Source: a virus
Lineage: Duplodnaviria > Heunggongvirae > Uroviricota > Caudoviricetes
Length of the DNA stretch: 8,870 nt
IMG/VR virus record: IMGVR_UViG_2671180906_000004
Strand: one strand, 5' to 3'
Shown: piece after piece, positions 2,248 to 7,062 of the stretch
Layout of the letters: each line of letters opens with the position of its first letter
How positions within the stretch are numbered: the first letter of the stretch is position 1
The notes under the pieces: generated by a model
Told to the model about the DNA's origin: nothing
The model's database searches: none
Seen by the model: the letters and a program-made list of their open reading frames with translations, nothing else
Made by a program: the position numbers and the translations under genes

Positions 2248-2451
2248 ATGGTTACAGTCGCTGAACTGCAGGCGCTGCGTCAGGCGCGCCTTGATTTATT
2301 AACCGGTAAACGGGTTGTGTCGGTACAGAAAGACGGTCGCAGGATCGAATATACGGCAGCGTCCCTGAATGAGCTTAACCGTGCGATCAACGATGCGGAG
2401 TCGGTTCTGGGTACGACCCGACGCCGCCGACCGCTGGGAGTGAGGTTATGA
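2248..2451 (+). CDS. W: Head-tail joining / head completion protein (gpW-like)
   Basis: 67-aa ORF with the motif LTGKRVVSVQKDGRRIEYTAASL matching lambda gpW ([22 protein letters not shown] as recalled). GGAGGAG at 2238-2244; the ATG directly follows the TGA stop of gene A (TGAATG). Confidence 0.9.
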   Translation: MVTVAELQALRQARLDLLTGKRVVSVQKDGRRIEYTAASLNELNRAINDAESVLGTTRRRRPLGVRL

Positions 2452-4041
2452 AACGAACGCCTGTCCTGATTGATGTGAACGGCGTTCCGCTTCGTGAGAG
2501 TCTCAGCTACAACGGAGGCGGCGCAGGATTTGGCGGGCAAATGGCAGAGTGGTTACCACCGGCGCAGAGTGCCGATGCGGCCCTGTTGCCTGCATTGCGT
2601 CTGGGGAATGCCCGGGCAGATGATCTGGTGCGCAATAACGGTATCGCGGCTAATGCGGTGGCCCTGCATAAGGATCATATCGTCGGGCACATGTTTCTTA
2701 TCAGCTACCGTCTGAACTGGCGTTGGCTGGGGATGCGGGAGACCACGGCAAAAAGTTTTGTCGGGGAGGTGGAAGCAGCCTGGTCGGAATACGCAGAAGG
2801 AATGTTTGGCGAGATCGACGTGGAAGGGAAACGCACGTTTACGGAATTTATCCGTGAAGGGGTGGGCGTGCATGCCTTTAACGGCGAAATCTTTGTGCAG
2901 CCGGTCTGGGATACGGAAACCACGCAGTTATTCCGTACGCGTTTTAAAGCCGTGAGTCCGAAACGGGTGGACACGCCAGGACACGGTATGGGGAACCACT
3001 TTCTGCGGGCCGGGGTTGAGGTCGATCGGTATGGGCGGGCGATTGCGTACCATATCTGTGAGGATGATTTTCCGTTCTCTGGTGCCGGACGCTGGGAGCG
3101 GATCCCGCGTGAGCTTCCCACCGGGCGTCCGGCCATGCTGCATATTTTTGAGCCGGTGGAGGACGGGCAGACCCGTGGGGCTAATCAGTTTTACAGCGTA
3201 ATGGAGCGGATGAAGATGCTGGACTCCCTGCAGGCCACGCAGCTTCAGTCGGCCATTGTGAAGGCGATGTATGCAGCCACAATCGAAAGTGAACTTGATA
3301 CCGAAAAGGCATTTGAATATATCGCGGGGGCACCGCAAGGTCAGCAGGATAATCCGCTTATTAATATTCTGGAGAAGTTCACCCGCTGGTATGACACGAA
3401 TAACGTGACGCTGGGCGGTGTTAAAATTCCGCACCTTTTTTCCTGGCGATGCGCTGAACCTGCAGACAGCGCAGGATTCAGACAATGGATTTTCGGCGCT
3501 TGAACAGGCGCTGCTGCGGTATATTGCAGCCGGTCTTGGCGTTTCCTACGAACAGTTGTCCCGTGATTACTCGAAGGTCAGTTACTCAAGTGCCCGCGCC
3601 TCCGCCAATGAGTCGTGGCGCTATTTTATGGGGCGGCGAAAATTTATTGCGGCCCGGCTGGCCACGCAGATGTTTTCCTGCTGGCTGGAAGAGGCGCTTC
3701 TTCGGGGGATTATTCGTCCGCCACGGGCGCGTTTTGATTTTTACCAGGCGCGTTCAGCCTGGTCACGGGCAGAGTGGATTAGCTCCGGAAGAATGGCCAT
3801 TGACGGGCTCAAGGAGGTCCAGGAATCGGTGATGCGCATTGAGGCCGGACTGAGCACGTATGAGAAAGAACTGGCACTGATGGGCGAAGATTATCAGGAC
3901 ATTTTCCGCCAGCAGGTCAGGGAATCCGCAGAGCGCGAAAAAGCCGGACTCTCACGTCCGGTGTGGATAGCCCAGGCGTATCAGCAGCAGATAGCGGAGA
4001 GTCGCAGGCCGGAAGAGGAGACAACATCACGTGAGACGTAA
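2448..4041 (+). CDS. B: Portal protein (gpB-like), reading frame interrupted at a T6 run (3436-3441), so either a pseudogene or a sequencing indel
   Basis: Two ORFs (2448-3503 and 3418-4041) are together colinear with lambda gpB (NGGGAGFGGQ, ARADDLVRNNG, FEPVEDGQTRGAN.FYSVME.MKMLD, LQTAQD.DNG, LLRYIAAGLGVSYEQLSR, RMAIDGLKEVQE). Removing one T from caccTTTTTTcctggcgat restores ...IPHLF-PGDALNLQTAQD... in a single frame. The ATG overlaps the W stop (ATGA). Confidence 0.85.
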
Positions 4042-5592
4042 TCTTTCACATATTATCGCTGCGGCATTCAATGAGCCGCTGCTTCTGGAGCCCGCCTATG
4101 CGCGGGTTTTCTTTTGCGCGCTCGGGCGTGAGATGGGCGCAGCAAGCCTTTCGGTACCGCAACAGCAGGTACAGCTTGACGCTCCCGGGATGCTGGCTGA
4201 AACGGACGAGTACATGGCCGGAGGCAAACGACCTGCCCGTGTTTACCGGGTGGTGAACGGTATTGCTGTACTGCCGGTGACCGGCACGCTGGTACACCGG
4301 CTGGGTGGCATGCGGCCATTTTCCGGAATGACTGGCTATGACGGCATTGTCGCCTGTCTTCAGCAGGCAATGGCGGACACTCAGGTACGGGGCGTACTGC
4401 TGGACATTGACAGTTCTGGCGGGCAGGCCACCGGCGCGTTTGACTGCGCTGACATGATTTACCGTCTCCGGCAGCTGAAGCCTGTCTGGGCACTGTGCAA
4501 TGACACGGCCTGTTCAGCCGCCATGTTACTGGCATCGGCCTGCTCCCGACGGCTGGTTACCCAGACATCCCGTATCGGCTCCATTGGGGTGATGATGGGC
4601 CATGTCAGCTATGCCGGTCATCTGGCACAGGCCGGTGTGGATATCACGCTGATTTACGCCGGATCGCACAAGGTGGATGGCAATCAGTTTGAATCCCTGC
4701 CAGCAAAGGTTCGCCAGGACATGCAGCAGCGCATTGATGCGGCGCGCCGGATGTTTGCTGAAAAAGTGGCGATGTATACCGGTTTATCTGTGGATGCGGT
4801 TATGGGAACAGAGGCCGCCGTTTTTGAAGGTCAGTCCGGTATTGAGGCCGAACTGGCGGATGAATTAATCAATGCGTCGGACGCCATCAGCGTGATGGCT
4901 GCGACGCTGAACACACACGATACAGGAGGCACTATGCCGCAATTAACTGCAACGGAGGCTGCCGCGCAGGAGAACCAGCGAGTGATGGGGATCCTGACGT
5001 GTCAGGAAGCGAAAGGACGTGAACAACTGGCCACGATGCTGGCAGGGCAACAGGGTATGAGCGTTGAGCAGGCCCGGGCGATTCTGGCCGTGGCGGCACC
5101 GCAACAATCTGGTGTATCTGCGCAGAGTGAAGCCGATCGCATTATGGCATGTGAAGAGGCGAAAGGACGTGAACAACTGGCGGCAACGCTGGCGGCGATG
5201 CCGGAGATGACGGTGGAAAAAGCCCGTCCGATTCTGGCTGCTTCACCGCAGGCGAATGCCGGACCCTCACTTCGTGATCAGATTATGGCCCTGGATGAGG
5301 CAAAAGGGGCAGAGGCGCAGGCTGAAAAACTGGCGGCCTGTCCGGGGATGACCGTGGAGAATGCCCGGGCTGTACTGGCGGGGGGCCCCGGNNNNNNNNN
5401 NNNNNNNNNNNNNNNNNNNNNNNNNNNNNNNNNNNNNNNNNNNNNNNNNNNNNNNNNNNNNNNNNNNNNNNNNNNNNNNNNNNNNNNNAACATTTCATGG
5501 CGAACCATTCACCGGCAGCGGTACAGGGTGGCGTGCCACAGACGTCAGCAGACGGTGATGCGGACGTGAAAATGCTCATGGCCATGCCATGA
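4031..5592 (+). CDS. C: Prohead protease / scaffold (gpC-like, S49/ClpP-like serine peptidase family), interrupted by an assembly gap
   Basis: GTG start at 4031 gives MRRNLSHIIAAAFNEPLLLEPAYARVFFCAL, matching the lambda gpC N-terminus (AFNEPLMLEPAYARVFFCAL as recalled). Conserved core VNGIAVLPV.GTLV, GMTGY.GI, FDCADMI, KPVWAL.ND..CSA..LLASA.SRRLVTQT, GSIGVMM, ITLIY.GSHKVDGN. After the N run the matching C-terminus (...SADGDADVKMLMAMP*) is in a different frame and stops at 5590-5592. Confidence 0.85.
4934..5592 (+). CDS. nu3: Nu3-like scaffolding protein, nested in-frame within the 3' part of gene C (partial because of the gap)
   Basis: In-frame ATG at 4934 preceded by AGGAGG (4924-4929) with a 4-nt spacer, positioned like the internal Nu3 start of lambda. 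The downstream sequence carries the Nu3-like motif IMGIL.C.EA.GRE....LA..PGMTVE.AR.ILA.APQ. Confidence 0.5.
4979..5391 (+). repeat. In-frame tandem coding repeats (at least 3 units of ~47-53 codons) of the Nu3-like scaffold motif, running into the assembly gap
   Basis: Unit starts at about 4979 (RVMGILTCQEAKGREQLATMLA...GMSVEQARAILAVAAPQ), 5138 (RIMACEEAKGREQLAATLAAMPEMTVEKARPILAASPQ) and 5279 (QIMALDEAKGAEAQAEKLAACPGMTVENARAVLAGGP...). A near-identical 26-nt core, ga(a/g)gcgaaaggacgtgaacaactggc, occurs at 5005-5030 and 5157-5182. Confidence 0.8.
5392..5488. other. Assembly gap (run of 97 N)
   Basis: Uninterrupted N run visible in the sequence; the reading frame of the gpC/Nu3 gene differs on the two sides. 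Confidence 0.99.
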
Positions 5593-5628: not shown

Positions 5629-5976
5629 ATGGTAACGAAAACCATCACTGAACAGCGTGCGGAAGTACGTATTTTTGCCGGTAATGATCCGGCCCATACC
5701 GCCACAGGCAGCAGCGGGATTTCCTCGGCAACACCGGCTCTGACGCCCCTGATGCTGGATGAGGATACCGGGAAACTGGTGGTCTGGGACGGACAGAAGG
5801 CAGGCCATGTGGTTGGCATACTGGTACTGCCGCTTGAAGGTACAGAGACGGTGCTGACGTATTACAAGTCGGGGACCTTTGCGACGGAGGCCATCCACTG
5901 GCCTGAGAGAGTGGATACACACAAAAAGGCGAATGCCTTTGCCGGCAGTGCCCTGAGTCACGCAGCGCTGCCGTAA
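5629..5976 (+). CDS. D: Head decoration protein (gpD-like)
   Basis: 115-aa ORF with DPAHTAT, TPLMLD, KLVVWDG, VGIL, YYKSGTF, and AFAG near the C-terminus, matching lambda gpD as recalled. GAGG upstream at 5614-5617. Position between C/Nu3 and E as in lambda. Confidence 0.9.
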   Translation: MVTKTITEQRAEVRIFAGNDPAHTATGSSGISSATPALTPLMLDEDTGKLVVWDGQKAGHVVGILVLPLEGTETVLTYYKSGTFATEAIHWPERVDTHKKANAFAGSALSHAALP

Positions 5977-6033: not shown

Positions 6034-7062
6034 ATGGGATTGTTTACGACCCGCCAGTTACTCGGTTATACCGAACAAAAAGTTAAATTTCGTGCGCTGT
6101 TTCTGGAGCTGTTTTTCCGCCGTACGGTGAATTTCCATACCGAAGAGGTAATGCTGGACAAAATTACCGGAAAAACGCCGGTGGCGGCCTATGTCTCCCC
6201 GGTTGTTGAAGGAAAGGTGTTGCGTCACCGTGGCGGTGAAACTCGTGTACTGCGCCCGGGCTACGTTAAGCCGAAACACGAATTTAATTACCAGCAGGCG
6301 GTGGAGCGTCTTCCCGGTGAAGATCCGGCCCAGCTGAACGGCCCGGCTTACCGTCGCCTGCGTATCATCACCGATAACCTCAAACAGGAAGAGCACGCCA
6401 TTGTCCAGGTGGAAGAGATGCAGGCGGTGAATGCCGTGCTGTATGGCAAATACACCATGGAAGGAGAGCAGTTTGAAACTGTTGAGGTCGATTTTGGCCG
6501 GTCGGTGGGAAATAACATTACGCAGGCAGGAGGGACGGAGTGGAGCGCTCAGGACCGCGATACCTTTGATCCGACGCATGATCTGGATGCGTACTGTGAT
6601 TTTGCTTCCGGCACCATCAATATTGCCATTATGGATGGTAAGGTCTGGCGTCTGCTGAATGGCTTTAAGCTGTTCCGCGAAAAACTGGATACCCGTCGTG
6701 GCTCAAATTCACAGCTGGAAACGGCAGTGAAAGACCTGGGGGCGGTGGTGTCCTTCAAAGGGTATTATGGTGATCTGGCAATCGTGGTGGCAAAAACGTC
6801 CTATGTGGCAGAGGACGGTACCGAAAAACGTTATCTGCCGGACGGCACACTGGTACTGGGAAATACGGCCGCAGAGGGTATTCGTTGCTACGGTGCCATT
6901 CAGGATGCGCAGGCATTGTCTGAAGGCGTGGTGGCGTCTTCCCGTTATCCGAAACACTGGCTGACCGTGGGTGATCCGGCGCGTGAATTCACCATGACGC
7001 AGTCCGCGCCGCTGATGGTGCTGCCGGATCCGGATGAGTTTGTGGTGGTGCAGGTGAAATAA
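6034..7062 (+). CDS. E: Major capsid protein (gpE-like)
   Basis: 342 aa, the same length class as lambda gpE, with extensive matches (TTRQLL..EQK.KF, LFL.LFF, YVSP.V.G, PGYVKPKHE, RLP.EDP, AIVQVEEMQAV.AVL.GKYTM.GE.F, NNITQ.GGTEWS, KLDTRRGSNS.LETAVKDLG, GNT.A.G.R.YG.IQDA, RYPK.W.T.GDPAREFTM.QSAPLM, DPDEFV.VQ). AAGGA upstream. Confidence 0.95.
   Translation: MGLFTTRQLLGYTEQKVKFRALFLELFFRRTVNFHTEEVMLDKITGKTPVAAYVSPVVEGKVLRHRGGETRVLRPGYVKPKHEFNYQQAVERLPGEDPAQLNGPAYRRLRIITDNLKQEEHAIVQVEEMQAVNAVLYGKYTMEGEQFETVEVDFGRSVGNNITQAGGTEWSAQDRDTFDPTHDLDAYCDFASGTINIAIMDGKVWRLLNGFKLFREKLDTRRGSNSQLETAVKDLGAVVSFKGYYGDLAIVVAKTSYVAEDGTEKRYLPDGTLVLGNTAAEGIRCYGAIQDAQALSEGVVASSRYPKHWLTVGDPAREFTMTQSAPLMVLPDPDEFVVVQVK

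Follow-up and report, generated by a model that had tools for sequence, protein, structure and literature searches.

The stretch of DNA analysed here (8,870 nucleotides, referred to as the window) comprises a block of head genes from a prophage of the phage 21/lambda type. Its ORFs follow the order terminase large subunit, W-like, portal, protease-scaffold gene, decoration-like (5629-5976) and major-capsid-like (6034-7062), which agrees with the operon order in the annotated phage 21, lambda and E. coli prophage records. Coordinates below are those of the window unless another sequence is named, and the genes, sites and domains described are on the + strand.

The full-length protease-scaffold gene, a homologue of lambda C and phage 21 gene 5, occupies 4031-5592 and starts with GTG at 4031. 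The gene shares 92% nucleotide identity with phage 21 gene 5, and its protein shares 52% amino acid identity with lambda gpC (E = 3e-139). Sequence conservation of the full-length product starts at residue 3. The Shine-Dalgarno (SD) sequence of this gene, AGGAG at 4016-4020, lies 10 nt before the GTG with a pairing energy of -9.1 kcal/mol, and it is marked as a putative ribosome-binding site (RBS) in the phage 21 records. The GTG lies just before the stop codon of the portal gene (TAA 4039-4041), and this overlap of the two genes suggests translational coupling. A Peptidase S49 (SppA-like) domain is encoded at 4469-4906, corresponding to residues 147-292 (Pfam PF01343, E = 2.6e-33), and residues 81-298 of lambda gpC align to solved SppA structures. 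We also aligned the protein in a set of six sequences (phage 21, lambda, phi80, Aeromonas phiARM81ld, Gifsy-1 and an E. coli prophage). S162, which lies in a C-S-A motif, and K214 are invariant across this alignment; on the basis of work on SppA and gpC, they are candidates for the Ser and Lys that act in catalysis in the S49 fold.

Nine codons past the end of the S49 domain there is a candidate start site in the same frame. AGGAGG at 4924-4929 is followed by the spacer CACT (4930-4933) and by ATG at 4934-4936, as read directly from the sequence. The distance between 4031 and 4934 is 903 nt (3 x 301), so this ATG is codon 302 (Met302) of the ORF that starts with GTG 4031. Rereading the sequence therefore gave the same coordinates and frame as the earlier note, which had pointed out the AGGAGG, the 4-nt spacer and the in-frame ATG. 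In the protease frame the SD is read as aca-GGA-GGC, encoding Thr-Gly-Gly. Its pairing with the 3' end of 16S rRNA (-10.3 kcal/mol) is the strongest among the in-frame starts of the ORF, and a moderate SD (-7.4) is found at GTG 4982 and ATG 4985. The 4-nt spacer is near the short limit of the functional range. RNA folding around the start gave no strong structure (z = +0.34 against shuffled sequences, and +0.55 for the lambda site), and an Rfam scan of the window returned zero matches. In the phage 21 record OL657228, a minus-strand 'CII binding site' is placed over the start (window 4939-4952, TTGC-N6-TTGC); this pattern was found 2 times against 1.7 expected and was treated as chance.

The coding region of the nested scaffold (Nu3 / gp6-like) would extend from the ATG to the end of the gene, 4934-5592. 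It is about 200 aa long in intact relatives and is interrupted by a run of N in the window. An alignment with lambda Nu3 had been suggested as a check on the scaffold assignment, and it shows that the 152 readable scaffold residues are homologous to Nu3 (BLASTP, E = 5e-17), with three repeat segments. Each of these three segments matches the same single segment of lambda Nu3, residues 113-176. All three lie downstream of ATG 4934, and the description of this ATG as upstream of Nu3-like repeats is therefore correct. Three stretches of the scaffold region also match PHROG 8399, 'head scaffolding protein' (1e-33). As delimited by the BLASTP segments, three diverged protein repeats ('Tri boxes') occupy 4952-5389, at approximately 4952-5146, 5141-5254 and 5282-5389, with the motif I-M-x-x-x-E-A-x-G-R-E-x-L-A...P-G-M-T-V-E-x-A-R-x-I-L-A. 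Tri1, Tri and Tri3 boxes are marked in the phage 21 record M81255. No DNA-level tandem repeats were detected for the Nu3-like repeats, which are present at the protein level only.

The run of 97 N is located at 5392-5488, where the relatives have 41 nt, and it disrupts the reading frame. The apparent end of the ORF at 5569 is due to this run, and the real stop is TGA at 5590-5592; both the stop and the size of the gap were deduced from alignments to phage 21 and to an E. coli O121 prophage. Both flanks of the run match intact relatives and the sequence on its 3' side is identical to them, with the bases just 5' of the gap (GGGGGGCCCCGG) diverging from the relatives. In addition, a single surplus T in the T run near 3436-3441 shifts the frame of the portal gene, which appears as two ORFs. 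The copy resembles a draft-quality assembly or a prophage in decay. It may come from an assembly of low quality or from a defective prophage, and it may yield no functional product. The gap and the portal frameshift have no effect on the start site itself.

Within the window, AGGAGG occurs 4 times against 2.86 expected and GGAG-N4-10-ATG occurs 10 times against 8.9 expected. By SD energy, ATG 4934 is 7th among the 517 candidate + strand starts and 3rd among the 199 ATGs. The SD and ATG motif by itself is not beyond chance in the window, and an argument from the single sequence is weak. We used comparative data because the motif is not enriched in the single sequence, and it is conservation in relatives that raises the site above chance.

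The closest annotated counterpart is found in phage 21. Gene 6 of this phage, encoding the scaffolding protein, starts at 2404 with an RBS just upstream in two independent records (M81255, OL657228). The phage 21 match begins at 1501, which corresponds to window 4031, and position 2404 therefore corresponds exactly to window 4934. Phage 21 resembles the window in operon position, in the annotated start and RBS of gene 6, in the three Tri boxes and in the GTG start of the full-length gene with AGGAG. The four codons before Gly-Gly encode THDT in the window and SNVR in phage 21, and because of this difference the SD is AGGAGG (-10.3) in the window but GAGGAGG (-12.0) in phage 21. The window copy also differs from phage 21 in having the assembly gap in its 3' part. 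In N15 and phi80, gene 6 encodes 137 aa in each case and is annotated as 'head scaffolding protein; internal in-frame translational start within gene 5'. The Met of both proteins shares an alignment column with window Met302, and genes 5 and 6 of both phages are like the window in having the nested start at this column preceded by GGAGG-N4-ATG. Unlike the window, N15 and phi80 have lambda-type single-repeat scaffolds, which are about 50% identical to the window protein, and the full-length gene of phi80 starts with ATG instead of GTG. The view of ATG 4934 as the start of a nested Nu3-like scaffold, put forward in the earlier note, is supported by its mapping onto the gene 6 starts of phage 21, N15 and phi80.

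Conservation of the site extends well beyond these phages. In the six-sequence alignment Met302 is invariant and the linker around it is variable. From 80 loci in one-genome-per-species contigs, we kept those with the C-terminal extension and aligned 56 distinct proteins. Nearly all of them have ATG at the Met302 column after GGAG, GGAGG or GGGAG, as in lambda (tcaGGAGGgcgaATG), phi80 (cttGGAGGaactATG), Vibrio (tatgGGAGcaaccATG) and further gammaproteobacterial contigs (ataGGAGcaactATG). We then compared 36 representatives that are less than 80% identical. The Met302 column is Met in 31 of the 36, a Gly stands a few columns upstream in 28, and the adjacent columns have no consensus. GGAG at -17 to -5 was found at 24 of 30 sites, compared with 13 of 496 other in-frame ATGs. 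Median SD pairing was -6.55 kcal/mol, compared with -2.7 kcal/mol for the 496 other in-frame ATGs (Mann-Whitney p = 5e-13; the representatives are related and were treated as independent, so p-values are indicative only). When the Met columns in the 3' two-thirds of the gene were scanned, only the Met302 column joined ATG (29 of 33 representatives less than 80% identical, ranging from enterobacteria to alphaproteobacteria) with GGAG (24), and GGAG was found upstream of any other Met column in at most 3 of the 33.

In lambda, the homologous site differs from the one in the databases. The nu3 gene in GenBank/RefSeq starts at 5132, which is Met239 of gpC, and encodes 201 aa. The AGGAGG-GCGA-ATG of lambda is located at 5332-5342, corresponding to Met309 of gpC, and it is this Met that lies in the conserved column. 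Met239 has a weak SD (-6.9) and is inside the S49 fold. At the equivalent position phi80, phage 21 and phiARM81ld have Ile or Val, and the window has ATT (4733) with no SD, which rules out the database start of lambda nu3 as the site homologous to ATG 4934. The N15 record, whose start is noted as 'assigned by similarity with lambda', places it at the Met309-equivalent column. The product starting at Met309 has 131 aa and a computed mass of 13.39 kDa. Purified lambda gpNu3 is reportedly about 13.4 kDa, in agreement with this product. The earlier note had seen the site as mirroring the lambda arrangement. This holds for the architecture, since lambda C/Nu3 shares with the window an S49 protease, an in-frame nested scaffold with a common C terminus and AGGAGG-N4-ATG at the same column; the homologous lambda site, however, is 5332-5342 and not the database nu3 start at 5132. 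The two also differ in that lambda has one repeat unit instead of three and a Ser/Thr/Ala-rich stretch after the Met that is about 45 residues longer than in the window.

It had further been proposed that the internal SD is better than that of the full-length gene, in line with production of scaffold in excess over protease. The first part is true, narrowly, of the window (-10.3 versus -9.1) and of phage 21. The order is reversed in lambda, phi80 and Gifsy-1, with full-length and internal energies of -12.0 and -10.8, -11.8 and -9.3, and -12.1 and -10.3, respectively. Because the full-length SD is the stronger one in these three, SD strength cannot generally explain the excess of scaffold. In the window the internal start has ATG and a 4-nt spacer, whereas the full-length start has GTG and a 10-nt spacer. 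Start codon and spacing are more consistent differences between the internal and full-length starts than SD strength is.

Taken together, AGGAGG and ATG 4934 are very probably the start of a head-scaffolding protein nested inside the head-protease gene, as judged from comparison of sequences. In the full explanation, to which we give a probability of about 0.9, a single frame from GTG 4031 to TGA 5592 would yield two proteins. Ribosomes starting at GTG 4031, probably through coupling to portal-gene termination, would produce a protein of about 500 aa in which a short linker joins the S49 serine protease to a scaffold domain that carries three helical repeats. Others would bind AGGAGG 4924-4929 on the same late polycistronic mRNA and start at ATG 4934, producing the C-terminal 200 aa or so as the free scaffolding protein (Nu3 / gp6). 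Neither a sigma-70-like promoter nor a terminator was found at 4600-5400, and the lack of a promoter-like site upstream suggests that the start is translational, not transcriptional. Independent translation initiation on the late mRNA is the simplest reading. In lambda, gpC and Nu3 co-assemble via their common C-terminal domain, and the scaffold is in excess over the protease. In the same way, the C-terminal domain common to both products may allow a few protease molecules to co-assemble with many scaffold molecules in the procapsid and later to digest the scaffold.

Three other explanations were weighed against nested initiation. The SD and the Met could be a by-product of coding for Gly-Gly-Thr-Met, and the free scaffold could arise otherwise, for example by proteolytic cleavage. 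This would fit the chance frequency of AGGAGG and of GGAG-N-ATG in the window and the presence of equally strong SD-like sites elsewhere inside genes, and a Gly-Gly linker could be retained for flexibility. A linker kept for its amino acids, however, does not account for the codons used: for the conserved Gly, 21 of 28 representatives use the rare GGA, which makes up 8.8% of the other Gly codons in the same genes, and this bias reflects selection on the nucleotides, not on the amino acid. Nor does it account for retention of the Met where the rest of the linker is unconserved, or for the association of GGAG with the Met302 ATG as opposed to other ATGs. As a negative control we used a comparable site inside the portal gene (3812-3832), where AGGAGG at 3812-3817 is followed by an in-frame GTG at 3829 and ATG at 3832; this site is not conserved, since phage 21, lambda and phi80 all carry synonymous changes that destroy it. 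We therefore regard a coding by-product as very unlikely.

An equally slight chance is given to a scaffold that starts elsewhere in the frame, at the Met239 equivalent or at 4721 (M231), 4751 (M241) or 4985 (M319). The 201-aa form of lambda Nu3 in GenBank/RefSeq, a PHROG built on that form and the moderate SD at GTG 4982/ATG 4985 would speak for such a start. However, the ATT without SD at 4733, the Ile or Val in the relatives and the position inside the S49 fold disfavour the Met239 equivalent, and the N15 start and the mass of the lambda Met309 product favour the conserved column. The remaining candidates are poorly conserved, with ATG at M231, M241 and M319 in 3, 10 and 16 of 33 representatives and GGAG upstream in 0, 0 and 3. 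Finally, the internal SD could serve as an elongation pause at the domain boundary that aids folding of the protease domain, and not as an initiation site. It sits precisely where the protease domain ends, which suits this role, and conservation of GGAG alone would be compatible with pausing as well as with initiation. Yet a pause needs no ATG, and in 29 of 33 representatives an ATG follows the SD at a short, constant spacing; moreover, a separate Nu3/gp6 product is annotated in the phage 21, N15 and phi80 records. Later ribosome-profiling work is said to have found SD-dependent pausing to be largely an artefact, which we also counted against it. Pausing is thus the least probable of the three, and even taken together they account for a small part of the probability.

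The nested start as such is not new. Records of phage 21, N15 and phi80 have long carried it at this very position, and the C/Nu3 arrangement of lambda is a textbook case. What the comparison adds is the likely conclusion that this start is ancient and family-wide in S49 protease-scaffold genes, that it goes uncalled by automated annotation and that the lambda nu3 start is placed 70 codons too far upstream. Prophages whose S49 protease-scaffold genes have the nested start occur in Enterobacterales, Vibrio, Aeromonas, Pseudomonas, Marinobacter and some alphaproteobacteria. About a third of complete E. coli genomes (1,867 of 5,426) contain a match to the gene. In the RefSeq E. coli matches listed, only 'S49 family peptidase' is annotated under the match. 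Exact short products are present in public protein collections, where they are mostly unnamed or called hypothetical. The scaffold of a very common prophage head type is invisible to pipelines that allow one product per reading frame, and the start in the lambda reference nu3 is unsupported by family-wide conservation. When head-assembly proteins are counted, cloned or modelled from such records, the scaffold would be missed or mis-sized.

Similar arrangements are known from other viruses. In herpesvirus UL26/UL26.5 and phage Mu I/Z, the 3' part of the maturation-protease gene also codes, in frame, for the scaffold, and the protease and the scaffold have a common C terminus and co-assemble. 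The fold of herpesvirus assemblin is unrelated to that of the protease described here, and UL26.5 has its own promoter and transcript, unlike the nested start in the window, which has no promoter-like site and appears to be translational. Giving the protease the scaffold's own C-terminal domain is a textbook means of delivering it into the procapsid.

The nested scaffold start that is conserved in the family differs from the reference start of lambda nu3. In lambda (NC_001416; locus L003 of our comparison), the reference nu3 start is located at 5132 (L003 2433), corresponding to Met239, and yields a product of 201 aa, whereas the conserved AGGAGG-N4-ATG is located at 5332-5342 (L003 2631-2643), corresponding to Met309, and yields a product of 131 aa and 13.39 kDa. 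Met239 is an unconserved residue within the S49 domain. The alignment column of Met309 is the start chosen by the annotators of N15 and phi80.

Two relatives have no Met in this column. The linker of the Providencia alcalifaciens locus (L012) has Glu there and an ATG 2 codons upstream (aagaggacaagATGtct), and that of the Escherichia whittamii locus (L068) has Thr there and an ATG 5 codons upstream (cgatttATGtct). In both, the nested start may be slightly shifted, or the alignment may be a few columns off. A lambda-type C gene was also found in assemblies of unrelated organisms, such as Kitasatospora, Shewanella, Neobacillus, an Akkermansia MAG, Enterococcus and Paenibacillus (L016, L018-L023, L032, L041, L046, L055 and others). 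The identity of these genes to the query is 52-54%, the same as that of lambda's own C gene, and several of them are on short or low-coverage contigs. In L016 and L022, the ones that were taken into the alignment, the linker and start context are the same as in lambda. These genes look like contaminating lambda control or cloning-vector DNA.

A match to the CII-box pattern TTGY-N6-TTGY (TTGCAGTTAATTGC, 4939-4952, minus strand) directly overlies the nested gene's first codons, and in the phage 21 record (OL657228) this match is annotated as a CII binding site. The pattern occurs in the window at chance frequency (2 versus 1.7 expected) and is absent from the corresponding place in lambda.

Of all SD pairings in the window, that of an AAGGAGG inside the portal gene is the strongest (-12.6 kcal/mol); in-frame GTG and ATG codons follow 11 and 14 nt later (3812-3832). 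This site has no nucleotide-level conservation in any of phage 21, lambda and phi80 and is therefore probably meaningless; it served as the negative control for the nested start. The portal gene itself consists of two overlapping ORFs (2448-3503 and 3418-4041), and the overlap zone, 3418-3503, contains a T run near 3436-3441. A T/C homopolymer stretch with one surplus base (CACCTTTTTTCCTGG in the window versus CACCTTTTCCCTGG in phage 21 and an E. coli O121 prophage) causes the split; either the homopolymer was misread in sequencing, or the portal gene is pseudogenised and the prophage defective.

Within the protease/scaffold gene, 97 N at 5392-5488 stand in place of only 41 nt in close relatives, so the reading frame is not preserved. 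The 12 bases preceding the run (GGGGGGCCCCGG) differ from the relatives, like a poor-quality contig end, and the run, directly after the third repeat, is probably an assembly gap.
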